Below are positions 1 to 46,788 of a stretch of 64,000 nucleotides of DNA, piece after piece. The stretch's first letter is position 1. The number at the start of each line of letters is the position of its first letter. The position numbers were made by a program, and so were the translations under genes. The notes under the pieces were generated by a model. The model had not been told where the DNA came from, did no database searches, and saw nothing but the letters and a program-made list of their open reading frames with translations. The DNA is from Shigella phage Henu12: sequence record OQ834936. One strand, given 5' to 3'.

Positions 1-229
1 CTTCGGTCTCGCTGTCCAGCTTAAGGGTAACATCAAAGGACACTTTAAATTTCTTCGTGATAGCCATAATAATTTCTCCTATAGAATTAGTGACATACGG
101 CCCAATTAGGCCCCATCTTACAGCAGATTCTTTTCCGTTGTCAACCACTTTACCATTTAGTTTTTTAGCAGTTGCGCGAGCGTCATCACGAGATTTTGCA
201 GATACAATGATGTTTTTGATAGTAGCCAT
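1..229 (-). CDS. hypothetical early protein, 3'-truncated by window edge (starts MATIKNIIVSAKSRDDARATAKKLNGKVV...)
   Basis: Minus-strand ATG at 227-229 preceded by GGAG RBS inside a conserved leader; frame stays open to position 1. Not in the ORF track because it runs off the window. Confidence 0.4.
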   Translation of the reverse strand, partial: MATIKNIIVSAKSRDDARATAKKLNGKVVDNGKESAVRWGLIGPYVTNSIGEIIMAITKKFKVSFDVTLKLDSETE

Positions 230-319
230 TTTGATACTCCAGTTTAGGTTGATTGTTGGTAAAGCTCTTTATCTGGGGCTTATCTTATCTAACTATAAAC
301 CCCATGTAAAGGACTTTAT
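230..319 (-). promoter_or_regulatory. repeated intergenic cassette copy A1: sigma70-like promoter (-35 TTTACA 310-305, 17-nt spacer, -10 TAAGAT 287-282), stem-loop, conserved leader with GGAG RBS
   Basis: Near-identical element recurs at 701-784 and partly at 1166-1200; hairpin GGGGUUUAU/AUAAGCCCC shows a compensatory base-pair change relative to copy A2. Confidence 0.5.
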
Positions 320-700
320 TTAATTAATTTTGAAAACTGTAACGTAGCCGTCACTACCAATAGTTTGGGATACTCCAGCTTTCTCTACATCATACCCCAT
401 TTTATCAAGATGATACATTGCATCTTCATATCCATATTTTCCGCCTTGATAGCGTCTTTTTTCGCATCGTATCACAGTTTTACCACGTCCTGCAATAGCA
501 TTTATGATAGCTTTTTCACCGGATAATGTACCGTCAAGCATAGTAGCTTTGTAGTGGTTGATACGGTTACCATTAACATCATACTTAAAATTGTAAGCGT
601 GAACAACAATTATTTTTCCTTTGAAGTTTTCTTTCATAGTTTCCTCTAAGATACTACGAAAGTTTTCTTTGTTGATAAATTTAGGCGCACGATATTTCAT
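320..700 (-). CDS. hypothetical protein (126 aa)
   Basis: ORF track; start directly preceded by conserved leader and GGAG RBS; co-oriented with neighbours. Confidence 0.55.
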   Translation of the reverse strand: MKYRAPKFINKENFRSILEETMKENFKGKIIVVHAYNFKYDVNGNRINHYKATMLDGTLSGEKAIINAIAGRGKTVIRCEKRRYQGGKYGYEDAMYHLDKMGYDVEKAGVSQTIGSDGYVTVFKIN

Positions 701-784
701 TTCAGATTCTCCAGTTTAGGATTGTTGGTAAAGCTCTTTATCTGGGGCTTAAGATACTAGCTTTTAAACCCCATGTAAAGTACT
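701..784 (-). promoter_or_regulatory. repeated intergenic cassette copy A2: promoter (-35 TTTACA 779-774, -10 TATCTT 756-751), stem-loop 745-772, conserved leader/RBS
   Basis: Direct repeat of the 230-319 element; conserved tail CCAACAATCCTAAACTGGAGAATCTGAA immediately before the ATG. Confidence 0.5.
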
Positions 785-946
785 TTATGCAATAATTTTT
801 ATAAAATCTTTCATGGTTATTTTATCGCCATTTGTAAGGGCTACACAATTATTACCCATAGCAGATTTATAGAGATAGAAGACTTTACCAATTTTTGGGT
901 ATCCGTCTAAATCTTTGTATTGTATTACATCGTTTTCTTTAATCAT
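785..946 (-). CDS. small hypothetical protein (53 aa, MIKENDVIQYKDLDGYPKIGKVFYLYKSAMGNNCVALTNGDKITMKDFIKIIA)
   Basis: Hand translation of minus strand; ATG 944-946 with GAAGG RBS; stop 785-787 abuts cassette A2. Below the track's 60-aa cutoff. Confidence 0.4.
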   Translation of the reverse strand: MIKENDVIQYKDLDGYPKIGKVFYLYKSAMGNNCVALTNGDKITMKDFIKIIA

Positions 947-958
947 TGTCAAGCCTTC

Positions 959-1165
959 TTAAACGTTGTAATAATAAATTGCTGTATGTCTTGTAAACTG
1001 TCTTGTATGATTTGTCAAGTAACAATCTGACCTGATTGACGTATTAACATATTTATCAAAATCTTTTTCTGAGATACGTTGCCAAACATCACAAATTAGC
1101 ATATAGAAACGACGTTTATTTGTTTTGTTGTTGTCAACAATCATTAACTCACGTTGATATAACAT
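959..1165 (-). CDS. hypothetical protein (68 aa)
   Basis: ORF track; preceded by the conserved leader/RBS (copy A3). Confidence 0.5.
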   Translation of the reverse strand: MLYQRELMIVDNNKTNKRRFYMLICDVWQRISEKDFDKYVNTSIRSDCYLTNHTRQFTRHTAIYYYNV

Positions 1166-1200
1166 TTTCAGATTCTCCAGTTTAGGATTGTTGGGATGTT
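1166..1200 (-). promoter_or_regulatory. partial copy A3 of conserved leader/RBS (CCAACAATCCTAAACTGGAGAATCTGAAA-ATG)
   Basis: Third occurrence of the leader, with a different upstream region. Confidence 0.45.
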
Positions 1201-1214
1201 TCCCGTTGATGCAA

Positions 1215-1243
1215 ATACTATAAGACTGGATTTATGAAGTCAA
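1215..1243 (-). promoter_or_regulatory. sigma70-like promoter (TTGACT-N17-TAGTAT) heading the small early gene block
   Basis: Read on minus strand: -35 at 1243-1238, -10 at 1220-1215; lies about 50 nt upstream of the 1165 start. Confidence 0.4.
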
Positions 1244-1412
1244 CAAAATTTTTAAAAATATTTTTGATGTTTCGTGAATAGAACGCACGTATGCGGATAC
1301 ACTAAAACAGGAATCTAGTCAAGAATTATTTTTGAGTTCTCTACAAATTTTTATCTTGACTTTTGGGAGGAAGGGGAGTAAGAGGGGATGGTGGGGCTGG
1401 TTTCCTACAGCT

Positions 1413-1650
1413 ACCTACCTGCACAAACTGAAAATGAATTTTCCCTTTGGAGTCCAACTGCATCTGCACAGATTGAAAATGAAAAACCCCTTTGGAGTCT
1501 AAACCTGCACAAATTTGAAATGAATTTTCCCTTTGGAGTTCAGCTAAAGAAATCTGTCCAGAGTTCTATGCAACTATACCTGCACAAATTTAAAATGAAA
1601 AAGCCCTCCTTACCTGAGATTTTAAACTCAAACTTTGGAGGGCTTGTCTA
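1413..1650. repeat. tandem array of four imperfect direct repeats of about 45 bp (core CTGCACAAAtTtGAAAATGAAttTTCCCTTTGGAGT), last unit ending in an inverted repeat
   Basis: Units start near 1418, 1463, 1504 and 1578; intergenic between the 959-1165 gene and the macro-domain gene. Confidence 0.7.
1590..1650 (-). terminator. putative intrinsic terminator downstream of macro-domain gene (stem AAGCCCUCC/GGAGGGCUU then U-rich run)
   Basis: Inverted repeat 1602-1610/1635-1643 followed on the minus-strand RNA by UUUUCAUUUUAAAUUU; the loop is large so efficiency is uncertain. Confidence 0.35.
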
Positions 1651-1669
1651 TGTTTATCTGGGTAACTTA

Positions 1670-2464
1670 TTAGTTACGTGCTTCAACATAGTTTACGTTT
1701 TCATGTGTGATATAATCTTCTGCAAACTCTTCTGTAGTCGCATTGATATATACACTTGCATCATCGCCAAACGTTACCGCTCTGTGGTGGTGGCCTTGTA
1801 ACGGGTGGGTAACTTGAGCGTTACTTCGATTGTACTTCTCAACCGGAGGGTAACTGGTGTGTACCTTGCCATTACGCTTCACCTTGAGGGTAACTTTATC
1901 CTTGCCTACCACAGCAACACCATCAAAGTATTGAGGCTCACTGAAGTTCTCCCAACCAGTAACAGGACTAGTCAACTGACTGTACATCTTATCTTCATAG
2001 ACATACATATAAACGTCAACATCCTTCATAGTCTGGTTGATAATGGACAGTACAGCCATGCTATCAAGACCACCAATCCCTGCACCAATCATCGGAAGCC
2101 CAACTTTCTTAAGTTGATTAACTTTACAGTAGTTGTTAAGACGCTGTAAAGCTGCTTCTAAGGCGTTGTATCGTGCATCTTTGCCAGTGATAACCTGAGT
2201 GTAAAGGTTAGCAATTCGACCCTGCTTAAAACGTGCTACAGAGATGTTACCAAGCATTAGATGCTTAGGGTTATGATTTTCACCACCTACTGTAGCATAA
2301 ACTTCAGCGTCAGTTTCATAAGCTTTTGGGTAGCGTTTAGCAATTGTTGCTGCGATACCTGCTGGCATCAAGTTCATGCAGTTACAACCGTGACCAATGA
2401 TATCAAACTTCTTACCATCAAAATCTTTAAAGATATCACCTTTAATAATTTTTACGATACCCAT
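1670..2464 (-). CDS. macro-domain protein, TARG1/DarG-like (putative ADP-ribose glycohydrolase) with C-terminal extension
   Basis: Motifs GHGCNCMNLMPAGIAATIAKRYP and GLPMIGAGIGGLD resemble the TARG1 HCISEDCRMGAGIA and PRIGCGLD signatures. Start moved to internal Met (MGIVKIIKGDIF) with GGGAG RBS and ATGA overlap with the upstream stop; the track ORF extends to 2521. Confidence 0.6.
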   Translation of the reverse strand: MGIVKIIKGDIFKDFDGKKFDIIGHGCNCMNLMPAGIAATIAKRYPKAYETDAEVYATVGGENHNPKHLMLGNISVARFKQGRIANLYTQVITGKDARYNALEAALQRLNNYCKVNQLKKVGLPMIGAGIGGLDSMAVLSIINQTMKDVDVYMYVYEDKMYSQLTSPVTGWENFSEPQYFDGVAVVGKDKVTLKVKRNGKVHTSYPPVEKYNRSNAQVTHPLQGHHHRAVTFGDDASVYINATTEEFAEDYITHENVNYVEARN

Positions 2465-2465
2465 A

Positions 2466-2666
2466 TTAGTAATGCTCCCAACGTTCGTTATCTTCAGATG
2501 GTTTAACTCGGTTACCTTCATGGTCTACCCATAAAGCACCGCAACCTTCACAGATTACTGGCATTGCTGAACCAGCTTTAAATTCTGCCTTTGTAAAGAG
2601 ACCTTTTAAGTCTCCTGTATCTTTTCCAAACATCTCAACAGAACACTTAGTGCAGAAATCAGCCAT
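2466..2666 (-). CDS. small zinc-ribbon protein (CxxC...CxxC)
   Basis: ORF track; two Cys pairs (CTKC, CEGC). Confidence 0.5.
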   Translation of the reverse strand: MADFCTKCSVEMFGKDTGDLKGLFTKAEFKAGSAMPVICEGCGALWVDHEGNRVKPSEDNERWEHY

Positions 2667-2880
2667 TTGATATTACCTCTTGGAAGTATGTATGATTACT
2701 GGTGAAAGTCTGTTTAAAACTTTCAACGTTTGAACGTAAGAAGCCTTCATCTAAATAATATTTGAAGGTTTCTTTATGTGAGAAAACCTCGGTAAACGGG
2801 ATTACTTCACTTCTCCCTACATAGATACCAGATGCTATAATTTGCCGTGTCTTTTTATTTCTGACGATTAGAACTTTCAT
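2659..2880 (-). CDS. hypothetical protein (73 aa)
   Basis: ORF track; co-oriented and tightly packed. Confidence 0.45.
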   Translation of the reverse strand: MKVLIVRNKKTRQIIASGIYVGRSEVIPFTEVFSHKETFKYYLDEGFLRSNVESFKQTFTSNHTYFQEVISNG

Positions 2881-3181
2881 ACATTACCTTTTCAGTTAGT
2901 TGATATAAGTCTACATGTTCAATGCCAACAATGTCAATACCAATTTTAGCGTAACGCTCTTTGATATCATTGTCGTTCATCCAAACGAGACACCAATGAT
3001 TTCTAACAGACTCTTCGAGCTTATGTACACAATCTTGGAATGTTGGGGTATCGCCTCTTGTACCAATCATGGCGATTACACCATATAGAAACTCACCATT
3101 GCCATATGTCACTTGGGCTACACCAATATCTTTCTCATTATCTGAGAAGACGGCTACAATGGTTTTACCATTAAGTTCCAT
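2855..3181 (-). CDS. hypothetical protein (108 aa)
   Basis: ORF track. Confidence 0.5.
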   Translation of the reverse strand: MELNGKTIVAVFSDNEKDIGVAQVTYGNGEFLYGVIAMIGTRGDTPTFQDCVHKLEESVRNHWCLVWMNDNDIKERYAKIGIDIVGIEHVDLYQLTEKVMYESSNRQK

Positions 3182-3337
3182 TATAGATTACCTCTTTAAT
3201 TTGTTGTAAGATTGCTTCTGAAGCTTCTTCCCATAAGGTAGAGTTTTCAATTGAATCTTTAACCTGTGCAATACCAATATTAAAACGGGTATCACCATAC
3301 TCTTCAATCAAGTTAAGAAGCTTCTGTTTGTCCACAA

Positions 3338-3607
3338 TCACTTCCTCGTTTTAAGGACTGCATAGATTTCTTTAGACTCTTCTCCGAACCATGTGTAGTG
3401 ATTCTCGTTGATTTCAGGATGGTTGTCAACACGTATTTTGCAATCTCTTCCAACATGTTTAAGTTGTGCAGAAACACCCTGCATAAAGATGTGACAAGTT
3501 ACATCATCCATAACCGTTGGCATAATGTCAAATCTCATGTAAGTGTTATTTGGTCTTGGTAACAGAAGATAACCTTCCACAAAAAATGTTTCATTCTTCT
3601 CTGTCAT
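3338..3607 (-). CDS. hypothetical protein (89 aa)
   Basis: ORF track; overlaps the downstream gene start by 4 nt. Confidence 0.5.
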   Translation of the reverse strand: MTEKNETFFVEGYLLLPRPNNTYMRFDIMPTVMDDVTCHIFMQGVSAQLKHVGRDCKIRVDNHPEINENHYTWFGEESKEIYAVLKTRK

Positions 3608-3873
3608 TGCTGCCTATTCCCTAACAAAATCATATCAATTAAATTGTTTGCCTTAATAGTACATTCATAGTAACCATCACGATAAAACTCAAGAGCACTT
3701 GCAAGGTCTTCACCTTTAGTGCCTTTAACCTCATATCGTGCTTCTTCTTGAGTGTACTTGTCACTCTCACTTACTTGGGAGTTTTTGAAGGTACTGTTCA
3801 CTTTGTTCGTTGAACACCCTGACATAAGGCTCAGTAGCACAATCATTAATAAAGACTGTCTTAGTTTTTTCAT
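3604..3873 (-). CDS. putative o-spanin (outer-membrane lipoprotein; signal peptide ending LMSGC)
   Basis: Lipobox-like signal; gene starts inside the 3' end of the upstream TM/coiled-coil gene in another frame, as in Rz/Rz1. Confidence 0.5.
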   Translation of the reverse strand: MKKLRQSLLMIVLLSLMSGCSTNKVNSTFKNSQVSESDKYTQEEARYEVKGTKGEDLASALEFYRDGYYECTIKANNLIDMILLGNRQQ

Positions 3874-4114
3874 AGTTCAATACCTCTTTGGTGTGTTTGT
3901 TTTTAGCAAGCACATCTTTCAAATCATTTTTGTAATTGGAGCTAAGATTTGATAAACCTTCTTGATAAGCATCTTTAGCAACACTTACAAGTCTCTGGTT
4001 AGTTAACTCCTTTTCATTAACTTGACTGGTCTTGTAAGTGTAACCTCCCCAAGCACCAACACCTATTAAGAAAATGATTACAAAAGCTGCTTGACAAAAT
4101 TCTTTAAACGTCAT
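3767..4114 (-). CDS. putative i-spanin (N-terminal TM helix plus periplasmic domain)
   Basis: N-terminal hydrophobic helix FVIIFLIGVGAWGG; overlaps the lipoprotein gene by about 107 nt. Confidence 0.5.
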   Translation of the reverse strand: MTFKEFCQAAFVIIFLIGVGAWGGYTYKTSQVNEKELTNQRLVSVAKDAYQEGLSNLSSNYKNDLKDVLAKNKHTKEVLNYEKTKTVFINDCATEPYVRVFNEQSEQYLQKLPSK

Positions 4115-4130
4115 TTAACTTCTCCTAGAA

Positions 4131-4156
4131 ATGAAAAAGGCTCCCGAAGGAGCCTC
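4131..4156 (-). terminator. intrinsic terminator GGCUCC-UUCG-GGAGCC plus U5
   Basis: Perfect hairpin with UUCG tetraloop and U-tract on the minus-strand RNA, just downstream of the 4167-4631 gene. Confidence 0.7.
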
Positions 4157-4166
4157 TATAATAACT

Positions 4167-4631
4167 TTAACCAAGAACTTTCGCAAGGACATTTGCTGCC
4201 ATTGTTGAGGCTTTTGAAGCAGCAGCTACGCCAGCCTTAATGGTATTATCCTTAATCGCAGAAACCGTTGCAGTATCTGTGAAGAGGTAAGTGGTAGTCT
4301 GAGAACCACTTGTAAAGGAAAGCATAAGAGCAGTTTCCAGATTGAAAGAACGGTAAGGAGCACCGGATTGTACAATCCCTTTTGCACCTAACTCTGAAGC
4401 CATACCCATATCATAGATAGTCATCAGATTTTCTTTATGAGCAGTAGTTGAACCAACACCTTTAACGTGTTTTGTGACATTCAACATTGCACGATACTCA
4501 CGAATGTTACCATCAGCTTTCACGTTTACTGCACGAAAGATTTTACCATCGAAATTACTTTTGATAATCTCACGAACTATCTGTGATTTGTTACCGGAAG
4601 CATCGATAGCTACTGTAATAATATTTTGCAT
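4167..4631 (-). CDS. hypothetical protein (154 aa)
   Basis: ORF track; followed by a terminator. Confidence 0.5.
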   Translation of the reverse strand: MQNIITVAIDASGNKSQIVREIIKSNFDGKIFRAVNVKADGNIREYRAMLNVTKHVKGVGSTTAHKENLMTIYDMGMASELGAKGIVQSGAPYRSFNLETALMLSFTSGSQTTTYLFTDTATVSAIKDNTIKAGVAAASKASTMAANVLAKVLG

Positions 4632-4642
4632 GGTTTACTCTC

Positions 4643-5338
4643 TCAGTTTTTAACAAGCATTGTTTTGATGTGTGGTAAGATTCTTTCAACCTTTGCCACG
4701 TTCTTCACTGTATCTTCTATAAAGCATACTACATCATAGTAAGGTAGAATGCAAGACTGAAGCATACGAACTTTCAAACTTTCTGCACTAATCTCATTGT
4801 CACCAAATCCACGCATAAACAGTAGGAAATCACTGTCTACATTCTCATTCAGGAAAAGATGTGTGACAACTCTTTGTGATTCTCCACGAGCAGTTAAGAA
4901 TCCTATATCAGCATTTCTTGATATACCACACAGGATGTTAAAAACATATGTTGGTTTAGCTCTGCGAGAGTCTACCAAGTTAGTATACTGTGAGTAAGTA
5001 CCATCATCTAACAAAGTTGCATTAAGCTCCTTATTAAAGCTTGTAAGAACACCGTCAATGTCTGCTAAGACCATTTTACGTTTTTCTTCCAAGTTCTTTG
5101 CAACCAAGATAAGGCTGTTACGACCAACATCTACAGTTTTACCTGTTAGCAAATCCTGACAAGGAATCTGTGTCTTTGTTGAGTGGAAGTCTTCAAATCT
5201 ACACACAACATTTCTTGCTGTATCTGCAAAGTCAGCTTTAGCAATATCTGACCAACTTGCAGAACTGATATCTAAATCAAGTGGCTTAATATCATAAGCA
5301 TGACACAGAACCATATCAAATTGTTTTGATTCGCTCAT
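4643..5338 (-). CDS. HAD-superfamily phosphatase-like protein
   Basis: Motif LADIDGVLT (DxDGxL/T), the HAD motif I. Confidence 0.45.
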   Translation of the reverse strand: MSESKQFDMVLCHAYDIKPLDLDISSASWSDIAKADFADTARNVVCRFEDFHSTKTQIPCQDLLTGKTVDVGRNSLILVAKNLEEKRKMVLADIDGVLTSFNKELNATLLDDGTYSQYTNLVDSRRAKPTYVFNILCGISRNADIGFLTARGESQRVVTHLFLNENVDSDFLLFMRGFGDNEISAESLKVRMLQSCILPYYDVVCFIEDTVKNVAKVERILPHIKTMLVKN

Positions 5339-5864
5339 ATTTTACCTTTTTAATGTTTGTTGCAAACTCACATTGAGCAAGCAGTTTCATGTTATTGTAC
5401 ACATCTTGAGAGTATTGTCTAGCCTTTGGAATCTTGTATTTGTAACCAGCATTATAAGAAGCTAGGACACGCTTCATAGAGTACTTTCCATCTGGGTTAC
5501 CATGAACCTTAGTCCAGAATAATAGCTCCTTATGAGCCTCTTTCGCTGAGTAATGGAAGTCACTTACTAGCTTCTTCTTAGCAACCTTTGGAGATACCTT
5601 GTTACGCTTTACAACAGTCTTCAAGTGATTTTGGAAAACACCATAATCATGAGTCTTTTTATTTTCTAACATGACACCTAATTGTGACTCTTGTAAGGCT
5701 ATAGCTGCTAAAGGGATTCCCCAACCTTTTCCCATCTGTCCTTCGCCATAGTTATATGCTTTTAACATATTAACTTTCTGGCTGATTGTAAGCTCTGGAC
5801 AGTCAGACGCTGTAGCTAAATGTGCTGTAAAGAATAAGCACAAACCTAAAACAAATTTCTTCAT
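5316..5864 (-). CDS. secreted lytic transglycosylase (SLT domain), candidate endolysin
   Basis: Signal peptide MKKFVLGLCLFFTAHLATA; SLT-like motifs ES, YGVFQ and YNAGY; start set at Met9 with AGGAG RBS (track start 5888). Confidence 0.55.
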   Translation of the reverse strand: MKKFVLGLCLFFTAHLATASDCPELTISQKVNMLKAYNYGEGQMGKGWGIPLAAIALQESQLGVMLENKKTHDYGVFQNHLKTVVKRNKVSPKVAKKKLVSDFHYSAKEAHKELLFWTKVHGNPDGKYSMKRVLASYNAGYKYKIPKARQYSQDVYNNMKLLAQCEFATNIKKVKYERIKTI

Positions 5865-5920
5865 TTGCACTCCTATTTTGTTAAACATGCAGATAATTAT
5901 ACACTAACCTGCACATTTTT

Positions 5921-5950
5921 CAAATAAAAAAGGCTGCCGAAGCAGCCCCT
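5921..5950 (-). terminator. intrinsic terminator GGCUGC-UUCG-GCAGCC plus U6
   Basis: Hairpin and U-tract on minus-strand RNA downstream of rIIB. Confidence 0.7.
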
Positions 5951-5965
5951 TTAGGAATTTACTTA

Positions 5966-7087
5966 TTAAACTTCACGTTTACGCTGAGAAATCAGTTCAC
6001 CAGCAGTACCTACAACTACGTGAAGTGCTTCTGAACCATCCCACTCTTTGATGATTTCACGGCGACTATTTACAATCGCTGCAACTTCATAACGGGAAGC
6101 TCGCATTTTCATGTCGTTGTAGTCAGTTGGTACTGAAACAACATCACGAGGATGAACACGAACTTTCAGGATAGTGTCACCAGAGAAGCTAGTTACATAA
6201 TCCCAAGCACCAACGTGCAGACCCTGAGAGCAGGTTACATGGCGGTTATTATCAACCATCCAACGTGGCATCTCTACAATGTTACCCAAATCATTTGGAA
6301 CTTTGCAGGTACGAGAGTCAAACAGTTTACCACCACGAGTTGTGACTTTCTTCCAACCGATGATATAACCTTCTTCATCAATTTCAACATCGAGGTGTGA
6401 TACGAAGCCCCAAAGTTGTTCTACAGAGTCTTTTGATGGGTTTTCCATCAGTTTTTCAAAGAATGCAATCAGTCGAACAAAGCCATTATCACCTTTCTTC
6501 ATCATATCCAGAATACGGTCTACCAGAGTTGAGCGCATCTGAACAGCACCGTAATACAGGTTGTCACCTTTGATGGTTACAGCACCTTGAGTGAAGTTCT
6601 CAATAGACTTGCGAATGTTCATCAGTTCAAAAGCTTTCTTGTACTCACCTGAAACAACAGCCATTACAATATCAGTGTAGTTAGGGTGAGTTGACTCAAC
6701 AATCTCAGACTCTGCACCGAAAGTCATGATAACAGAATCACCAGTAATCATGTATTCAATCTGGCTGTTATTCTGCATTGCTTCATGCAGAGCATTTACA
6801 GGTTCTGCTTTGACTGCTTCTTTAACAGCTTTTGCAACAGGTTTCTGCTTAGATACCTTCTTGGTCGCTTTAACTTTCTTAGCACTCTTTGCAATATCTT
6901 TCAGAGTCTTTGCAGGTTTTGCTTTGGTTTTCCCTGACAGCAGCGTTGCTTCATGGCGCTCTACAGCACGACCTACCGAACGGGTTGAAGTGTTATACTT
7001 CAGAGCGATTGCAGTTTTGGTCAGTTTACCTTCTTTAACCAGTGCATAGATTTCTGCGTCGATTTGTGCTTTAGTCTTAGTAGTCAT
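5966..7087 (-). CDS. rIIB: rIIB-like protein
   Basis: C-terminal half matches remembered T4 rIIB blocks (LVDRILD, ENPS, KVHPRDVVS-P-DYND-KMR); lies directly downstream of rIIA as in T4. Confidence 0.8.
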   Translation of the reverse strand: MTTKTKAQIDAEIYALVKEGKLTKTAIALKYNTSTRSVGRAVERHEATLLSGKTKAKPAKTLKDIAKSAKKVKATKKVSKQKPVAKAVKEAVKAEPVNALHEAMQNNSQIEYMITGDSVIMTFGAESEIVESTHPNYTDIVMAVVSGEYKKAFELMNIRKSIENFTQGAVTIKGDNLYYGAVQMRSTLVDRILDMMKKGDNGFVRLIAFFEKLMENPSKDSVEQLWGFVSHLDVEIDEEGYIIGWKKVTTRGGKLFDSRTCKVPNDLGNIVEMPRWMVDNNRHVTCSQGLHVGAWDYVTSFSGDTILKVRVHPRDVVSVPTDYNDMKMRASRYEVAAIVNSRREIIKEWDGSEALHVVVGTAGELISQRKREV

Positions 7088-36710: not shown

Positions 36711-37811
36711 ATGACAATTCTGTACAAACAAAACAAAGATGGTTCTTTCAACGTTTGGTCATGTGTTGCTGTAGGTGATAAAGTTGTTACAACCTACGGT
36801 AAAGAAAATGGCAAGATGATGTTCGAAGAGTACACAGCAGAACCAAAGAACATTGGTAAGAAGAATGAGCGTAATGCTGAACAGCAAGCTCTCTTTGAAG
36901 TTGCTGCTAAGTACAAGAAGCAGGTTGACCGTAAAGGGTATGCTTACACAAAGTCTGAAGCAGAGAATGTTGAGAAGGTTGGTGTACAGCTTGCTCAGGA
37001 TGCTTCCAAGATAAGTCACAAGAAGTATCTGGTATTCCCTGCCGATGCTCAACCTAAACTTGATGGTGTTCGTTGCAGGATTTCAAGAGATGCTGACTCA
37101 GAAAGTTTTACGGCATATTCTCGTGAGAACACGGTATACAACATTCCTGTAGAGTTGATTCCTGATGTTCTTCTTATGCTGAAACTGCACAAAGATGTTG
37201 AGGATTTCGATGGTGAGATTTATGCTCATGGTTGGGACTTGGAAGATATTGTATCTATGATTAAGAATGCTGACAATCCAGACCGTCACCTTCTTAAGTT
37301 CTACTGGTATGATATCTGTGACAAGACTAAATCTTGGCCTGAGCGTCGTGAAGTTATTGAGACTTCACCTTTAAATGACCTGAGAAATGGCTGTAGAGTT
37401 GTCCCTGTTAAATCTCGTCGTGTTAACTCTTGGGAAGAATTTGACACTGCTCATGATAAGTGGGTTGAAGCGAAGTTTGAAGGGGCAATGTACCGTTCAA
37501 TCTCCCCAGATTCATTCTATGAGTGTGGTCACCGTTCATACTTCTTGATTAAACATAAGAAGATGCACACCAAAGAGTTCACAGTAACGGGTGTGAAGAC
37601 TGATAAGCGTGGTCATGGCAAGTTCGTTGTAGAGACTCTTCCTAACGTCTTTGTAGATGTTTCATGGAAAACTACACACGAGAAGAAAAAGTATCTTGCT
37701 GAACATCCTGAAGAGTTTATCGGGAAGCCTTTAACGGTTCAGTTCCAGAAGATGACTCGTAAGGGTTCTTTACAGTTCCCTGTTGGGCTAGTAATTCGAG
37801 ACTATGAATAG
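36711..37811 (+). CDS. ATP-dependent DNA ligase
   Basis: Adenylation motif I KLDGVR and overall size (366 aa) typical of phage ligases. Confidence 0.75.
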   Translation: MTILYKQNKDGSFNVWSCVAVGDKVVTTYGKENGKMMFEEYTAEPKNIGKKNERNAEQQALFEVAAKYKKQVDRKGYAYTKSEAENVEKVGVQLAQDASKISHKKYLVFPADAQPKLDGVRCRISRDADSESFTAYSRENTVYNIPVELIPDVLLMLKLHKDVEDFDGEIYAHGWDLEDIVSMIKNADNPDRHLLKFYWYDICDKTKSWPERREVIETSPLNDLRNGCRVVPVKSRRVNSWEEFDTAHDKWVEAKFEGAMYRSISPDSFYECGHRSYFLIKHKKMHTKEFTVTGVKTDKRGHGKFVVETLPNVFVDVSWKTTHEKKKYLAEHPEEFIGKPLTVQFQKMTRKGSLQFPVGLVIRDYE

Positions 37812-37819
37812 AGGCCAGT

Positions 37820-37969
37820 ATGTTTAGTGCAATTGTTCTGTTTATATTTGTTGTTTTATCATTGGCTTACTTCACAAGTAAACTCTTAAGTATAACATAC
37901 AAAGCAGCCTTAGCCCTTACTCTGTTGTCATTTGCAGTAAATGCAGCAGTTAGAATGTATTTAGTATAA
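37820..37969 (+). CDS. small hydrophobic membrane protein (49 aa)
   Basis: Hand translation MFSAIVLFIFVVLSLAYFTSKLLSITYKAALALTLLSFAVNAAVRMYLV; GAGG RBS 5 nt upstream. Confidence 0.35.
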   Translation: MFSAIVLFIFVVLSLAYFTSKLLSITYKAALALTLLSFAVNAAVRMYLV

Positions 37970-37974
37970 AATTG

Positions 37975-38003
37975 TTGACATGAGTAACCTGACGGGTATA
38001 CTA
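37975..38003 (+). promoter_or_regulatory. sigma70-like promoter TTGACA-N16/17-TATACT
   Basis: Good -35 and -10 about 40 nt upstream of the secreted-protein gene. Confidence 0.55.
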
Positions 38004-38046
38004 CCTATATAGAAAATTATATAGGAACCCGTCAGAAACCTCGGGG

Positions 38047-38433
38047 GTGTTTATGAAAAAGTTACTTGTTGGTGTCATTGCTCTTGGTATGAGTTTTAGT
38101 GCAGCAGCTATGAAGATGCCTGAAGCAAACTTTAATGGTATCGCTTTAGAATCTTGTAAGATTGTACAGAAAATCGCTTCAAATGCTGGAGAGTTGACTA
38201 AACCGTTGTCTGCTCAGACTGTTCAAGAAATGACTGATAAGATGGTTGACTACAACTACCATTTTATGGGAGATTACTATGACAGATTAGCAGATGAGAT
38301 GGTCACTCAGAACGTTGACCTTCTTGATAGCAAAGGTATTGAGACTGTAGAAGATGTGAAAGACAACTTTATGCGTGAGTCTTTCAAAGGTGTTCAATAC
38401 TTTATTGAAAATCGTCACTGCATGGGTTTATAA
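38047..38433 (+). CDS. secreted/periplasmic hypothetical protein (signal peptide)
   Basis: N-terminal signal MKKLLVGVIALGMSFSAAA. Confidence 0.5.
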   Translation: MFMKKLLVGVIALGMSFSAAAMKMPEANFNGIALESCKIVQKIASNAGELTKPLSAQTVQEMTDKMVDYNYHFMGDYYDRLADEMVTQNVDLLDSKGIETVEDVKDNFMRESFKGVQYFIENRHCMGL

Positions 38434-38435
38434 TC

Positions 38436-38639
38436 ATGAAGAAGAACATCTGTAGAACAGACTATGGTGAAGTGGTCGATGATGACGGAGTAGTTATTTA
38501 CAGAGTTTGGGCTAATGATTTTGCAACCGTTGTAGAATCTTTAGATAACTACATTAATGGGACTCGTGAAAACGTCAGAGCAACTAATCTTGATTCGTTA
38601 ATAGACACTTCTCGAAAACGGAGAAAGAAAGATGAATGA
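38436..38639 (+). CDS. hypothetical protein (67 aa)
   Basis: ORF track. Confidence 0.45.
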   Translation: MKKNICRTDYGEVVDDDGVVIYRVWANDFATVVESLDNYINGTRENVRATNLDSLIDTSRKRRKKDE

Positions 38640-38931
38640 AGTCTTTGACCCATATGCACCTCAAGATTCTTGGGAGGCTGATAGAGAGGCTGAAATGGAG
38701 AGTTATGTCTGTCCAATGGATATAGAAGAGATGAAAGACTTTGTATCTTTCAGATTCTTTAAAGAGATTGAGAAGCTAAAACTTTCTCAGGCTCAAGTAG
38801 CAACTGTTTGTGAAATCTCGCAGAGTCGTGTGTCAAATATCATTAACGACCCTCAAAAGATTTCTTTAGAGTACATGCTTAATGCTTGTACAAAACTTGG
38901 TGTAAATTTTAACTTAAGGCTGGCAGATTAA
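38632..38931 (+). CDS. helix-turn-helix DNA-binding protein
   Basis: HTH-like segment LSQAQVATVCEISQSRVSNI. Confidence 0.5.
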   Translation: MNEVFDPYAPQDSWEADREAEMESYVCPMDIEEMKDFVSFRFFKEIEKLKLSQAQVATVCEISQSRVSNIINDPQKISLEYMLNACTKLGVNFNLRLAD

Positions 38932-38932
38932 T

Positions 38933-39292
38933 ATGAAACGTGAAAATGCAATCTTTAATGATAACTTTGCAATTGGCTTCTATGGTAAACCAACTCCAGC
39001 AGAGAAACTTTATGGTAATGCAATTCTGGAGACCTTGAAAGAGGTTTACACAACTGGTGGTATGAAGCATACTGAAGCAAACCGTGTAAGAGGTTATATG
39101 GCAATTGGCTCTGCAATCTCTAACATCAAACTTGAAACTACAAGTGCTAAAAAGGTACGAGACCACTTCATCAAAGAGTTGTCAGATAACCTAGATGGTG
39201 TTGAAGTCAAGGCTGTCTGGTTAGATGTTGATGGTCACAACTACACAACTTTTGTGTTTAAAAATGAGGATATCAAATGTCTCTTCCCTTAA
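38933..39292 (+). CDS. hypothetical protein (119 aa)
   Basis: ORF track. Confidence 0.5.
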   Translation: MKRENAIFNDNFAIGFYGKPTPAEKLYGNAILETLKEVYTTGGMKHTEANRVRGYMAIGSAISNIKLETTSAKKVRDHFIKELSDNLDGVEVKAVWLDVDGHNYTTFVFKNEDIKCLFP

Positions 39293-39780
39293 AACTCGAT
39301 TTATACTTTGGGTACAGTGTATTGCAAGGCAGCATACTATCACTACCAAAGTCAGATTATCGTTGTGATTTAGGTTCTGTGAAACGTGCATCACACTTTA
39401 ACAACAACATCTTAGGCTTGCAGACACTTCACAGGTGGCTTGAGGAAGATGGACGGTTGAATGAATATCTTCACCAACTAGAACTAGCCAAAGAAGAAGG
39501 GCATATGGGTTGGGATTTACTACCCCATCTGTACAAGCCTGCAAGCCCTATGGAGATACGCTATAACGAACAAGCAATTGATAGTTATAACAAATATAAT
39601 ATAACTATTGGCTCCAGAGCTTGGAAGGAGTATATGAAACTCCGTGAAATCATCATACAGACTATTGGAAAGCGTGTAGCAAAAGGTCTTGCTTATGATG
39701 AAAAGGTTGACTGGAATACACAAAAGTGTATAAAATTCTTCAAGTACGATAATGACAAGGATACTTTTGTAGAGGTTTAA
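39277..39780 (+). CDS. hypothetical protein (167 aa)
   Basis: ORF track. Confidence 0.5.
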   Translation: MSLPLKLDLYFGYSVLQGSILSLPKSDYRCDLGSVKRASHFNNNILGLQTLHRWLEEDGRLNEYLHQLELAKEEGHMGWDLLPHLYKPASPMEIRYNEQAIDSYNKYNITIGSRAWKEYMKLREIIIQTIGKRVAKGLAYDEKVDWNTQKCIKFFKYDNDKDTFVEV

Positions 39781-39781
39781 C

Positions 39782-40297
39782 ATGAAAATTGGAATTACCT
39801 TTTGCCAGCCTGAAGCAGAGTTCTTGAAATCAATGTTGTCTGAGCATATGAAAGCTACAAATCATACTGAGAAGACATTCTTGATTGACACTAACTATGA
39901 TGCAGGAACTATTGAGTTCATTGATGAAGACACTGCTGACTCTCTGTGTGTTCTTCCTGCTCACTTATTTACTCCAGAGCTACGTGACAGTCGTTCTATT
40001 GAAGTTAATCTGGAGCCAAGTATTGAACTCTACTCAGACATACAGTATCCAAGAAGCTTTAAAGCATTGCTAAACATCTTCATAGCTGATATTGTAGAGA
40101 TTGTTAAGCAGACCGAAGGTGGTCATGTAGTAACTGCTGAGTATGAACAAGGGACTATCAAACTGACAGGTGACTTTGGTTCTATGAGTTTCTTAGACTT
40201 TGTTCCAAAACACTTTGAAGATTTCCTGTCAAGTGAAGTTGATGACCTTGATTTCATACTAAAATTTGAACGCACTTTTAAGGTAAACAAAAAATGA
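39782..40297 (+). CDS. hypothetical protein (171 aa)
   Basis: ORF track. Confidence 0.5.
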   Translation: MKIGITFCQPEAEFLKSMLSEHMKATNHTEKTFLIDTNYDAGTIEFIDEDTADSLCVLPAHLFTPELRDSRSIEVNLEPSIELYSDIQYPRSFKALLNIFIADIVEIVKQTEGGHVVTAEYEQGTIKLTGDFGSMSFLDFVPKHFEDFLSSEVDDLDFILKFERTFKVNKK

Positions 40298-40566
40298 AAA
40301 TCTTAAGCGGAGTATCACAGTGTTACATGAATGATGGTGAGCCAGTTAAATGCTGCCATTGTGGAGGTGAGAACTTCCAAGGTGAAGTTTCAGAGATTGT
40401 CTCTGGCAACATCGCTGAAGAGTACACCCGTTGCTGTGGATGTGGAAAGATTTTATCTTTTTGGGCTTATGGAAGTTATGAACCACAACCTCACCTTATT
40501 TACCATCCGAACAGGATTGTGAAGCGTGTTCTGAACTGGTTCATTATCAAAGGATTTACAAAATGA
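40294..40566 (+). CDS. zinc-ribbon protein (CxxC...CxxC)
   Basis: CCHCGG and CCGCG cysteine clusters. Confidence 0.45.
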   Translation: MKILSGVSQCYMNDGEPVKCCHCGGENFQGEVSEIVSGNIAEEYTRCCGCGKILSFWAYGSYEPQPHLIYHPNRIVKRVLNWFIIKGFTK

Positions 40567-41108
40567 TTAAGCTAATTTTTGCAAGTGGTATTAACGGGGA
40601 ATTTGGCACAGCTACTGGAATGCCTTGGCCTCGTAATAAACAAGATATGGCAGAGTTTAAGAAGCAGACTATTAACCAGTTAGTCTTGGTGGGTAGCGAA
40701 ACTTGGAAGACTCTTGGGAGCAAACCTTTGCCAAACCGTGAGAACCTTGTCTTGACAAACTCTCTTGACTTTTATGGTCTGGACTTTAAAGATGATTCTC
40801 ATTGCAAAGCAAAAGTTAAGTCTGAAGCTTTTGGGGCTTTCCTAAAGTATATTGATAGTTCTATTGATGAAGATGTTTTAGTAATCGGTGGAGCCAATAT
40901 CTTAATCTCAGCTTTGCCGTATGCTGACGTAGTTTTCCACAGTGTTATTAAGGAAGTTACTGAAGAGGCTACTGTCAAGCTACCTTATGAGGGTTTCTTC
41001 CAGTACTTGTATGACACAGAGTTATTTGCTAAAGTACAGTCCAAACCCTCAGAAGATAAGTCTGTGGTGTTTGATACCTATGTTCCACAAGTAAGAGGAC
41101 GTTTCTAA
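40563..41108 (+). CDS. frd: dihydrofolate reductase
   Basis: DHFR-like N-terminus (GMPWP...F) and VIGGANI glycine motif; directly upstream of thymidylate synthase. Confidence 0.75.
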   Translation: MIKLIFASGINGEFGTATGMPWPRNKQDMAEFKKQTINQLVLVGSETWKTLGSKPLPNRENLVLTNSLDFYGLDFKDDSHCKAKVKSEAFGAFLKYIDSSIDEDVLVIGGANILISALPYADVVFHSVIKEVTEEATVKLPYEGFFQYLYDTELFAKVQSKPSEDKSVVFDTYVPQVRGRF

Positions 41109-41109
41109 T

Positions 41110-42009
41110 ATGTCACAAGCAGATGTAAGCTACAAAGCTATTTTAAACCATGTTTTATCAGTTGGTGAGTTGCGTAAAACCCGAACTGGCTCAGTGATTT
41201 CGACCTTTGCTCCACCTGAGTTCCGTTTTGATATGCGTAGTGGATTCCCATTAATCACCTCAAAACAAACATTTATGCGTCAAGTCCTCGGTGAAGCATT
41301 ATGGTTTATGAACGGTGAAAACCAACTAGGCCATTTGCGTTACAGAACTTGGGGGGAGAACGACGGAGAGCGTTGGACTATCTGGACAGATGATTTTAAA
41401 CGTTGGTTGAAAACAACCTATGCTACAGAGAATGATTGGCTGGAGGACGCTGGAGGAAGAATCTACGGAGTACAATGGAGAGCCTACGAAGGTCATGGTG
41501 GCGTTGTTGTAGACCAGTTGAGTAATCTTGTAGAGAAGATGAGAAAGTCCCCTACAGACCGTTACATGCTCGTTAACGCATGGAATGCAGCAGATATCTC
41601 AAGTAACTCTATGGCATTAGCACCTTGTCATGTACTTTTTCAGATTTATATCTCGAACACTAATGAGGTGGATTTGAAATGGTATCAGCGTTCTTGTGAT
41701 ACGTTCTTAGGGTTACCGTTTAACATCGCTTCCTATGCCTTTATCTTGGAAGTGTTGTGTAAACTGACGGGATATACACCGCGATATCTGATAGGGACTT
41801 ATGGTGATACTCAAATATACCAGAACCATATGTCGCAGGTTTTTCAACTTCTTGGTAATGAAGAGTTTCCAGCACCTAAGTTTGAAATTCATCAAGATTT
41901 GAAGTCTCTTGAAGACTTGAGACATATGACAGCAGATGACTTTCTAGGTGGGTTGAAAGGGTATAAACATGCTGGTAAGATTGAAGCACCTTTATCAGTA
42001 GGTAAGTAG
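41110..42009 (+). CDS. thyA: thymidylate synthase
   Basis: Active-site block PCH-FQ and QRSCDTFLGLPFNIASYA. Confidence 0.92.
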   Translation: MSQADVSYKAILNHVLSVGELRKTRTGSVISTFAPPEFRFDMRSGFPLITSKQTFMRQVLGEALWFMNGENQLGHLRYRTWGENDGERWTIWTDDFKRWLKTTYATENDWLEDAGGRIYGVQWRAYEGHGGVVVDQLSNLVEKMRKSPTDRYMLVNAWNAADISSNSMALAPCHVLFQIYISNTNEVDLKWYQRSCDTFLGLPFNIASYAFILEVLCKLTGYTPRYLIGTYGDTQIYQNHMSQVFQLLGNEEFPAPKFEIHQDLKSLEDLRHMTADDFLGGLKGYKHAGKIEAPLSVGK

Positions 42010-42010
42010 A

Positions 42011-42050
42011 AACAAAAAAGGCTCCCGTAAAAAGGAGCCTTAGAATTATT
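42011..42050. terminator. bidirectional intrinsic terminator (GGCUCC-loop-GGAGCC flanked by A- and U-runs) at the convergence point
   Basis: Hairpin 42020-42039 with A6 upstream and U-rich downstream; sits between the thyA stop and the stop of the 42046-42420 gene. Confidence 0.6.
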
Positions 42051-42420
42051 TCTTTTTAGTGCTTTGGGTATTTTGTTCTGTAATTGCTTGCAAAGCTGAT
42101 ACAGATTGTGCTAAGTTGTTAACACTGTCAGAGAACTTATCAAGGGTCTTAGTCAACTTAGCGTTTTCTCCCTTAACATTCTCTAGCTGAACTTTCTGGT
42201 TCTCCATCCCTAATTGTAGGAGCTTCATATCAGACTGTAAATCACGAATAGCTGAATAGTTACCTTTTGAGTAACTATCCAACTGTTGTAACTTTGTGTT
42301 GATAGAAACTTCTTGCTTTCCATCAGAGACCTGCATCGTAGTGTACATGCCAATTACACTGAAAATACCTACAACAATTGCACCAATGTTGTTCTTAAAA
42401 GCCTCTTCAATCCACTTCAT
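42046..42420 (-). CDS. membrane protein with N-terminal TM helix and coiled-coil domain
   Basis: Hydrophobic helix IGAIVVGIFSVIGMY followed by heptad-like Q/L/K-rich sequence. Confidence 0.5.
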   Translation of the reverse strand: MKWIEEAFKNNIGAIVVGIFSVIGMYTTMQVSDGKQEVSINTKLQQLDSYSKGNYSAIRDLQSDMKLLQLGMENQKVQLENVKGENAKLTKTLDKFSDSVNNLAQSVSALQAITEQNTQSTKKK

Positions 42421-42614
42421 TATTTTTCACCCTTAAAAGCCTTTTCCAAGGTATCTACAAATTCATCATCGATAGGTGTGTCTGTTTTACTCGCAAGGTA
42501 TCTTGCAAGCTTAAAGAACACTTTTTCAATCATGTATTCGCTAAGAAGAGAAAGTAGAAGCTTCCAGAAGAATGCCCCAAGATTTTTCAAGAGGATTGCT
42601 AGAATGGTTGGCAT
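42420..42614 (-). CDS. small membrane protein (64 aa)
   Basis: Hydrophobic N-terminal half, charged C-terminus. Confidence 0.5.
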   Translation of the reverse strand: MPTILAILLKNLGAFFWKLLLSLLSEYMIEKVFFKLARYLASKTDTPIDDEFVDTLEKAFKGEK

Positions 42615-42663
42615 TTAATCACCTTACTTCTTGAGCCAAGATGGTGAGAATACCTACTAAGAA

Positions 42664-42692
42664 ATATTAACACCATCTTGACAGTTAGTCAA
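42664..42692 (-). promoter_or_regulatory. sigma70-like promoter TTGACT-N17-TAATAT bracketed by a perfect 10-bp inverted repeat (CAAGATGGTG, 42637-42646 and 42671-42680)
   Basis: -10 lies inside the 24-bp loop of the inverted repeat; operator-like arrangement. Confidence 0.45.
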
Positions 42693-42700
42693 CAAGGTAA

Positions 42701-45232: not shown

Positions 45233-45250
45233 TTATCAATCCTCTTTATA

Positions 45251-45266
45251 GGGGCTGTGTAGCCCC
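45251..45266 (-). other. stem-loop GGGGCU-N4-AGCCCC between the two tail fibre genes
   Basis: Same arms as the 7138-7153 and 12000-12015 elements; 18 nt upstream of the fibre ATG. Confidence 0.5.
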
Positions 45267-45277
45267 TTTATAAATTT

Positions 45278-46486
45278 TTAAGCAACTCTCTTCCACACAT
45301 AAACAACATAAGATGGTTGTTCAACACTGAAAGCTTGTCCACCACCAGTGCTACCAGAAGTACCAGAGTGAGTGTGGTCAGCATTAGCAATGTTAACCGT
45401 AATGTTGTGTGAGTGAGCACCAATAGCTACAGAGTGGCTATGTGAGCCAATTGCTACAGAGTGAGCGTGAGCACCAACATACAAAGAGTGGTTGTGTGCT
45501 CCAATCGTCACAACGTGAGAGTGGTCACCTGCCCCATAAGTTGGTTGTGAAGTTGATGTTACACCACCATCACCACCTGCTGCAAAGTTGTTGTTACCAC
45601 GTCCACCAACGTTCTGTACAAGAGCTTGGTGAGTGTGATTGCCAGAGTTGTTTGTATTCCTTGAACCATAGTCAAAAGTACTGGTATACTTAGTTCCATA
45701 GTCAAAGTCACTTGTAGATTTTGTACCATAATCAAACACACTCGTTGTCTTATTTCCGTGGTCGAAACTTGAAGCTGACGCACTATTACCATGCGTGTGA
45801 GTTCCACCAGTTAAATAAATAGAGTGGGTGTGTGGTGGTAAGTTATTCTGAGAAAGTGCTACAGATGCACTACCAAAATTAGTTTCAACTGGTCTTGTGT
45901 CAGAATCATAACCAACTAATGCTCTACCTTTAGAGACAAGTTCCCAAGTCCCTCCGCACAGTAAATATGTAGCAGGGTTTGCAGGGTTAACTGACAAATG
46001 AATAGTACCAATTGGATAGCTATTCTGGATAGCTCTATATAAAGCATTCACAGCTTTTGCAGTAGCATACTTATCAGCATCTTCAGAGTAAGAGTTTGAA
46101 TATGTCCAGTTTTGAATATTAGACAAACCTACTTGAATCTTGTTAGTGTTGTGAGGGTTATTCTTGTCATTAATGTGATTTTGAATAAGGGCATTAACTT
46201 CATCACTTGAAAGGATTCCAAGGTTTAATCTAGCCTCAGCAACATTTACCACGTCTGACAAGTTATTAGCAGCCACTAATTGGAGTGCGTTAACAACATT
46301 ACCAAGTTCTACGTGAACCTTTGTAACACCGTGTGGGTTATTTCTTAAAGATGCGTGTGGAGCAAGTAATTGCTCAAGTGTGCATCGTTTATCCTCAATA
46401 CCTTGCTTAAGGTGAAAGATATCACTTAAATCAATAGGCAACGAGGCTTGAGGTAATGCACTAATTTGAATTTCACCTACTGGCAT
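45278..46486 (-). CDS. tail fibre protein with FDYGTK repeats and His-x-His repeats
   Basis: Repeats FDHGNKTTSV/FDYGTKSTSD/FDYGTKYTST/FDYGSRNTNN; C-terminus GAHNHS/GAHAHS/GSHSHS/GAHSHN similar to the C-terminus of the 843-aa fibre. Confidence 0.75.
   Translation of the reverse strand: MPVGEIQISALPQASLPIDLSDIFHLKQGIEDKRCTLEQLLAPHASLRNNPHGVTKVHVELGNVVNALQLVAANNLSDVVNVAEARLNLGILSSDEVNALIQNHINDKNNPHNTNKIQVGLSNIQNWTYSNSYSEDADKYATAKAVNALYRAIQNSYPIGTIHLSVNPANPATYLLCGGTWELVSKGRALVGYDSDTRPVETNFGSASVALSQNNLPPHTHSIYLTGGTHTHGNSASASSFDHGNKTTSVFDYGTKSTSDFDYGTKYTSTFDYGSRNTNNSGNHTHQALVQNVGGRGNNNFAAGGDGGVTSTSQPTYGAGDHSHVVTIGAHNHSLYVGAHAHSVAIGSHSHSVAIGAHSHNITVNIANADHTHSGTSGSTGGGQAFSVEQPSYVVYVWKRVA
45646..45772 (-). 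repeat. intragenic tandem repeat of about 27-30 bp encoding (F)DYGTKxTSx four times
   Basis: Direct DNA repeats visible on plus strand (ccatagtcaaa...); approximate coordinates. Confidence 0.5.
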
Positions 46487-46488
46487 TA

Positions 46489-46788
46489 TTAGCTCCCTTT
46501 ATATTCGTATGTGTAAAGGTTAGTCGTGCTAGTGGGTGCAGTTCCTGTTACTGTGTCAATTAATTCCCAACCATTGGAAACTAAATCAGGTTGCTCTGTA
46601 GCAAATGAACGAACCTCTCCAACCGTACCATTTACTTTGTTAAGCAAATAGTTGATAATATAGTTAAACCACTGACGACCCATAGGCTCACCCCTTAATA
46701 GGCCAGTGGCTTGAATTTCTGGAGGTGGTAAAACTTTAAGCTGGTTACCATCAGCATCAACTGTGTCTGTAGACCATGAAAGAGACAT
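46489..46788 (-). CDS. hypothetical tail/fibre-associated protein (99 aa)
   Basis: ORF track; located between baseplate and fibre genes. Confidence 0.45.

Follow-up and report, generated by a model that had tools for sequence, protein, structure and literature searches.

A conserved 53-codon accessory gene bounded by a promoter-hairpin cassette in a Mooglevirus-type phage

The minus-strand open reading frame at positions 785–946 (orf53) of the window, i.e., of the whole stretch of DNA analysed (64,000 nucleotides), is almost certainly a real protein-coding gene. It is an accessory gene of Mooglevirus and Suspvirus phages and is dispensable. The full account, in which a genuine, translated accessory gene is expressed early and bicistronically, has a host-binding role and owes its mobility to the cassettes that bound it, is favoured on balance. 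Judged by sequence comparison, the window is a Mooglevirus-type phage (Ounavirinae): positions 1–3000 match 320 phage records, the best of which are Mooglevirus members of the Ounavirinae (Felix O1-like myoviruses), and the nearest record is Shigella phage Henu11, with ~100% identity over window positions 110–2693. All genes in this part of the window are carried on the minus strand. The features of the locus are as follows.

230–318, minus strand: cassette A1, class A, with an A2-like architecture (−23.9 kcal/mol, z −4.6)
320–700, minus strand: orf126, the next cassette-bounded early gene (PHROG 4495, function unknown)
701–787, minus strand: cassette A2, class A, comprising hairpin, promoter and leader before the orf126 ATG
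785–946, minus strand: orf53, a 53-aa gene, stop codon included (PHROG 14219 member, predicted SH3/Tudor-like beta-barrel)
954–958, minus strand: Shine-Dalgarno-like GAAGG, 7 nt before the orf53 ATG, beginning right after the orf68 TAA (961–959)
959–1165, minus strand: orf68, the 68-aa upstream cistron, 12 nt from orf53 (PHROG 5293, function unknown)
1166–1243, minus strand: class-B cassette with promoter, hairpin and leader (promoter scan, fold), the candidate driver of orf68–orf53
1596–1655, minus strand: intrinsic terminator after the macro-domain gene, GCCCUCC...GGAGGGC followed by UUUUUCAUUUU (−25 kcal/mol, z −3.4)

Regarding the reading frame, orf53 runs from an ATG at 946–944 to a TAA at 787–785 and encodes the 53-aa product MIKENDVIQYKDLDGYPKIGKVFYLYKSAMGNNCVALTNGDKITMKDFIKIIA. 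The first-pass annotation had described this frame together with its GAAGG element, and both can be read directly from the sequence; a purine-rich AAGG/AGGG element is found at an equal distance from the ATG in all ten relatives compared. The TTG at 952, from which the ORF tool derived a 55-aa frame, was rejected as the start because it lies only 1 nt after GAAGG, too close to a ribosome-binding site, and because the relatives that annotate the gene start at the ATG. The stop codon of orf53 supplies the first three bases of the A2 hairpin, so the end of the gene does coincide with the start of the cassette as had been claimed, and the mirrored layout described for gene 320–700 is likewise present, as that gene stops 1–2 bases ahead of A1. 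The GC content of orf53 (27.8%) and orf68 (29.0%) is low compared with that of the window (39.2%), orf126 (34.6%) and the macro-domain gene (41.2%). ORF length was discarded as coding evidence, as a frame of at least 53 aa appeared in 1,630 of 20,000 shuffles of the 258-nt gap (8%, p about 0.08).

The coding evidence comes from comparison with relatives. The orf53 protein matches PHROG 14219 with an E-value of 6.7e-39 (132.5 bits), and residues 1–53 align to profile positions 1–53 of 53. A tblastn search with orf53 found 65 phage records, 36 of which are Ounavirinae with 60–98% identity covering residues 1–53 or 1–51. Orthologous DNA was taken from ten relatives, giving 11 sequences together with the window; the relatives span 60–98% identity, nine of the ten have exactly 53 codons, and in Sf18 a 1-nt indel two codons before the stop leaves 52 codons. 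Compared pairwise with the window, they give dN/dS values between 0.06 and 0.41 at dS of 0.5–1.2, the variable columns are distributed 19/16/36 over codon positions 1/2/3, and the sense frame is the sole stop-free frame of the six in 11/11 sequences. The comparative check that the first-pass annotation had proposed thus bears out its claim of a real gene, with frame and length conserved, dN/dS well below 1 and a full-length family match. The exact protein has also been called on a 90,382-bp ENA contig (15-billion-protein collection), and its GenBank/RefSeq cluster mates are hypothetical proteins of Sf13, Sf14, Sf15, Sf16, Sf18, Sf19, ESh19, ESh20 and KMM2; the unannotated Henu11 copy differs by a single residue, P17L. 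That orf53 is a chance, untranslated open frame in an AT-rich spacer between two cassette-driven genes is hardly credible and is effectively refuted by the sequence comparisons, since the 8% of shuffles mentioned above and the missing annotation in Henu11, Moogle, SFPB and vB_SflM_004 are set against length and frame kept at dS up to 1.2, the third-position pattern of variation, the single open frame, protein-level homologues in unrelated podoviruses without DNA similarity, and the under-annotation of Henu11 throughout. Literature searches returned no transcriptome or proteome covering orf53.

The gene had been described as unannotated, which is accurate for Henu11, Moogle, SFPB, vB_SflM_004 and a few more records, but most relatives, including the RefSeq genomes of Sf13 and Sf14, do annotate it. 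It is listed as a hypothetical protein in Sf13, Sf14, Sf18, SUSP1, Mijalis and others (Sf18 gp72; Sf13/Sf14 RefSeq YP_009618665/YP_009612667; phiSUSP1 ALH46987; Mijalis gp116). The Henu11 record contains 117 features versus about 150–170 in most relatives, and its annotation also misses orf68 and several further conserved small ORFs. Since the Henu11 annotation is sparse, the missing call reflects one sparse annotation and not an unrecognised gene. orf53 belongs to a family already on record as hypothetical proteins; it is an ordinary accessory gene that was missed in the closest deposited genome. The result fills in a missing annotation in one or a few deposited records and enlarges a small phage family of unknown function by one confirmed member.

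The product of orf53 is a 6.0 kDa protein with a pI of 8.8 and a net charge of about +2. Members of PHROG 14219 share its length and its place after an orf68 homologue and before a class-A cassette, and residues E4, Y10, G15, G20, V22, Y26, S28 and C34 are the same in all 24 sequences aligned, the window protein among them. No family for orf53 was found in Pfam or NCBIfam and no sequence relative in the PDB; neither these two databases nor Rfam yielded anything informative on the gene or the region, and there is no paralogue within the 64-kb window. An exhaustive profile-free search of 1.84 billion representative proteins yielded only three true relatives; two further hits, one over 14 residues and the other to a repeat protein, were set aside as spurious. 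A profile search added homologues at 32–48% identity, and those that could be placed belong to Klebsiella and Salmonella podoviruses. The homologue in Kayfunavirus PRF-SP1 comes second behind gp0.3 (Ocr) and, like that of Klebsiella phage RCIP0089, is situated upstream of the RNA polymerase gene; both (36–48% identity) match PHROG 14219. No DNA-level cassette flanks the podovirus homologues.

The AlphaFold2 model built from the 24-sequence alignment has five strands with a pLDDT of 88.6, and its topology superposes on solved SH3/Tudor-like members, so that the predicted fold is a five-stranded SH3/Tudor-like beta-barrel without catalytic features. In a viral structure library, significant E-values were obtained only for the protein's own family and for uncharacterised proteins. 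Likeness to the Tudor/SH3/KOW five-stranded beta-barrels holds at the level of fold only, with 6–20% sequence identity and no family profile match, and this fold spans hundreds of unrelated functions. The modelled fold is therefore generic and points to no specific function or ligand. A Sushi/CCP domain was also considered and rejected. The PDB hits suggesting it are summed matches of 13–17-residue beta-hairpins, in which every shown stretch has an E-value of at least 91, and these summed matches explain the "Sushi domain" label carried by one homologue in UniRef. The Sushi Pfam model reaches at best an E-value of 0.026, in 6 of the 24 family members, and gives no hit for the window protein, and whereas a Sushi domain (~60 aa) is marked by four conserved cysteines and a conserved tryptophan, a single cysteine is conserved in the orf53 family.

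Regarding function, the most likely role of the small orf53 protein would be to bind a host macromolecule in stoichiometric fashion and thereby serve host takeover or counter-defence. This reading is the best supported because it accords with the early region, the tiny size, the binding-type fold, the dispensability of the gene, and the presence of homologues among T7-like class I early genes. T7 gp0.4, gp0.6 and gp2 are class I early inhibitors of host proteins, and small T7-like early proteins are typically stoichiometric binders. orf53 resembles these class I early proteins in size (about 50–60 aa) and dispensability, and its distant homologues lie between gp0.3 and the RNA polymerase gene; the analogy is one of position and size, as there is no sequence similarity to the characterised T7 early proteins. 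Drawn from genomic position and size, a role as host-macromolecule binder has about an even chance of being correct. As a dispensable early gene, orf53 is a candidate for host-takeover or anti-defence screens.

Two other roles are possible for orf53, each less likely than that of a host binder. In the first, the protein would be a nucleic-acid binder with a KOW/Sso7d-type SH3 barrel, regulating phage early transcripts through the cassette hairpin or leader, or binding host RNA or the ribosome. A mildly basic pI of 8.8 is in itself neither for nor against nucleic-acid binding; taken together with a net charge of only about +2, it counts against this role. Felix O1 and Mordin keep the cassettes and lack orf53, so that the cassettes work without it, and the Autographiviridae that have an orf53 homologue have no cassette, which makes a nucleic-acid-binding role unlikely. 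In the second, orf53 would pair functionally with orf68, as a two-component, toxin/antidote-like system or as a heterodimeric early factor. The two genes are separated by 9–13 nt in all examined Ounavirinae with orf53, and both have an unusually low GC content (28–29% versus 39% for the window), which speaks for such a partnership. Nevertheless, about 140 records, Felix O1 and Mordin among them, have orf68 but no orf53, and the podovirus homologues of orf53 have no adjacent orf68, so a functional pair is quite improbable.

As to expression, orf68 directly precedes orf53 in every examined relative that has orf53. Because orf53 has no cassette of its own and begins 12 nt after orf68, it is placed as the distal cistron of a two-gene unit. 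The class-B cassette ahead of orf68 contains a promoter, TTGACT (1243–1238)-N17-TAGTAT (1220–1215), recognised as a consensus match only, followed by a short 5′-proximal hairpin, GGGA-AACA-UCCC, at 1204–1193 (fold z −2.7) and the leader CCTAAACTGGAG at 1186–1175, ahead of the ATG at 1165. Upstream, the intrinsic terminator at 1596–1655 separates the orf68–orf53 unit from preceding transcription. Its counterpart in Felix O1 is terminator t13, with which it shares the 3′ half caggtaaggagggctttttcattt (PMC3185647). In Felix O1, RT-PCR showed that the neighbouring ORFs 13, 16 and 20–22 peak 5 min after infection (PMC3185647), which fits early expression of orf53. Early, bicistronic expression of orf53 with orf68 is thus probable. 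In the proposed scheme, host sigma70 RNA polymerase would transcribe orf68–orf53 early, with orf53 as the second cistron; the message would start at the TTGACT-N17-TAGTAT promoter (1243–1215) and have its 3′ end in, or be processed at, the long hairpin 787–729 of the next cassette, and ribosomes would be recruited to orf53 by an AAGG-type site of its own that begins directly behind the orf68 stop.

A perfect −35 hexamer, TTGACA, is situated directly before the orf53 ATG, with TGTAAT 17 nt later inside codons 6–8 (window 924–952, minus strand). The CTTGACA is kept in 10/10 relatives (as CTTGATA in mistaenkt), and the −10-like TGTAAT is not kept in SUSP2-type sequences. The bases before the ATG, TAA-AAGG-CTTGACA, resemble the start of a cassette, TAA-AGTA-CTTTACA. 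On this sequence likeness, CTTGACA may be a −35-only remnant of a cassette at the left junction and not a functional promoter; given how short the match is, it could also have arisen by chance.

The non-coding gap of 400 nt between the macro-domain gene and the orf68 promoter has an array of its own. In plus-strand coordinates, window 1417–1620 contains four copies of a 43-nt unit (ACCTGCACAAAnTGAAAATGAA...CCCTTTGGAG), 41–75 nt apart. When the array is read on the minus strand, the copy closest to the macro-domain gene makes up the 3′ half of a canonical terminator, and the remaining copies look like degenerate terminator halves, all ending in TTGTGCAGGT. A fifth, partial copy is located at 5907–5932, beside another terminator-like hairpin.

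The first-pass annotation had supported the reality of orf53 by its place in a gene-plus-cassette module. The layout of genes and cassettes does exist, but the cassette after orf53 belongs, as read from its sequence, to the next gene, for which it provides a sigma70-type promoter, a covarying hairpin and a leader, and orf53 has no cassette of its own. A2 consists of a 21-bp imperfect hairpin at 787–729 (−24.9 kcal/mol, z −3.6) that encloses the promoter TTTACA (779–774)-N17-TATCTT (756–751) found by the promoter scan, and of a leader, identical to that of the class-B cassette, at 720–709, after which comes the orf126 ATG. A1 has its promoter at 310–305 (TTTACA) and 287–282 (TAAGAT) and its leader at 248–237, and stands before a gene of 85 aa, which begins at 229 and is cut off by the window edge. 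The repetition of the cassettes, which had also been noted, is genuine: the 24-nt core of A1 and A2 has exactly two occurrences versus 0.00 expected, and the 20-nt leader exactly two versus 0.03 expected. A weaker similarity between A1 and A2 (83% over 41 nt, repeat family D6) reaches ~20 nt into the 3′ ends of both ORFs.

Beyond the edge of the window, Henu11 has 14 copies of the invariant 12-nt leader in 6.7 kb, each followed after 7–9 nt by an ATG and each before a small ORF. The early region contains at least 14 one- or two-gene modules (Henu11 36800–48800, positions 360–6760) with two classes of promoter and hairpin. Class A is TTTACA-N17-TAnnnT within a 21-bp imperfect hairpin, and class B is a TTGACn/TTGCAA-type promoter followed by a short transcribed hairpin. 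All 34 class-A copies from 12 phages contain TTTACA (TTCACA in one) and TAnnnT at 17–18 nt, again as consensus matches only. Five inner pairs of the class-A stem covary (T-A/A-T, A-T/T-A, A-T/T-A/C-G), and 118 of 120 cells of the upper stem are paired versus a shuffle mean of 88.7, a value that none of 2,000 shuffles reached. The full class-A hairpin can form only in read-through RNA, because a transcript from its own promoter would start inside the 3′ arm; in read-through RNA, the A2 hairpin would be the 3′-terminal structure of the orf53 message. A U-tract is missing, and a terminator scan of the coding strand gives no call. Since the U-tract is absent, terminator activity is doubtful; the hairpin might instead make the polymerase pause, be cut by RNase III or stabilise the 3′ end. 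In the genome paper of Felix O1, the class-A element figures only as a direct repeat of 57 bp, located between genes 15/16 and 19/20 (PMC3185647).

The presence and absence of genes between relatives follows these elements. orf68 was found in 180 phage records and orf53 in 36 Ounavirinae records. In Felix O1 and Mordin, a class-A cassette comes right after the orf68 stop and orf53 is absent exactly there, from which its dispensability follows. Similarly, mistaenkt is without orf126, Mijalis is without both orf126 and orf85, and ESh21 is without orf85. Mordin has two tandem class-A promoter-hairpins at about 1125–1243, between orf68 and orf126, i.e., in the place of orf53 in the window; the first hairpin, a truncated one, breaks off at ...TTTACCAA, where it is joined to CTTTACA of the second. 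In Sf18, the 1-nt insertion makes orf53 end in ...KIN*, and the last 19 bases of the gene plus the junction are identical to the end and junction of orf126 in the window (314–336, cf. 783–805). This identity suggests gene conversion between cassette copies that would have reached into the coding ends. The modules were probably gained and lost independently by recombination at the cassettes.

The arrangement recalls the promoter-early stem-loops (PeSLs) of T4-type phages (Arbiol et al. 2010, PMC2839356; Comeau et al. 2014, PMC4122927). Both PeSLs and the Ounavirinae cassettes are repeated intergenic elements made of a sigma70-like promoter, a stem-loop, and a Shine-Dalgarno sequence with a start codon at the 3′ end; both are clustered among early genes that are small and non-essential, and it is at these elements that relatives differ by indels. 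The promoter is TTTACA-N17-TAnnnT in class A versus TTTACW-N17-TAYWAT in the PST/T4 PeSLs (PMC2839356; PMC4122927). As in PeSLs, −35 and −10 elements with a spacer of ~17 nt are present in each copy (34/34 class-A copies), a Shine-Dalgarno sequence and start codon stand at the 3′ end (14/14 Henu11 copies), and indels map to the elements (presence or absence of orf53, orf126 and orf85; the truncated tandem cassette of Mordin; the possible −35-only remnant ahead of orf53). In contrast to the T4-type PeSL, in which the promoter is downstream of a terminator stem-loop, the class-A hairpin encloses the promoter, lacks a U-tract and is of doubtful terminator activity, and the lineage is Ounavirinae rather than T4-like. 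It is a tentative and rather doubtful proposal that the promoter-in-hairpin cassettes of Ounavirinae are the counterparts of PeSLs, serving as recombination hot-spots that move single early genes, and that orf53 is one such gene, shared with T7-like podoviruses, whose SH3-like product would neutralise some host factor, which may be part of a defence system. As cassettes that mark indel boundaries and have covarying hairpins, these elements might offer a second system for testing cassette-mediated gene shuffling, in therapy-relevant phages. The cassette architecture is a more interesting by-product than orf53 itself.

Some further observations concern the annotation of the neighbouring genes. 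Henu11 gp42, a plus-strand 137-aa ORF annotated at window 1388–1801, crosses the repeat array described above and overlaps the 3′ end of the opposite-strand macro-domain gene. It is probably a spurious call, since most relatives do not annotate it. The macro-domain/phosphatase gene at window 1670–2521 (minus strand) has 283 aa according to the ORF tool versus 264 aa (795 nt) in relatives, and its true start is probably the internal ATG at 2464–2462, after the stop of an upstream 66-aa ORF (2466–2666). A G-rich tract, GGGAGGAAGGGGAGTAAGAGGGGATGGTGGGGCTGG, is found on the plus strand at window 1366–1400, in surrounding DNA of 39% GC.
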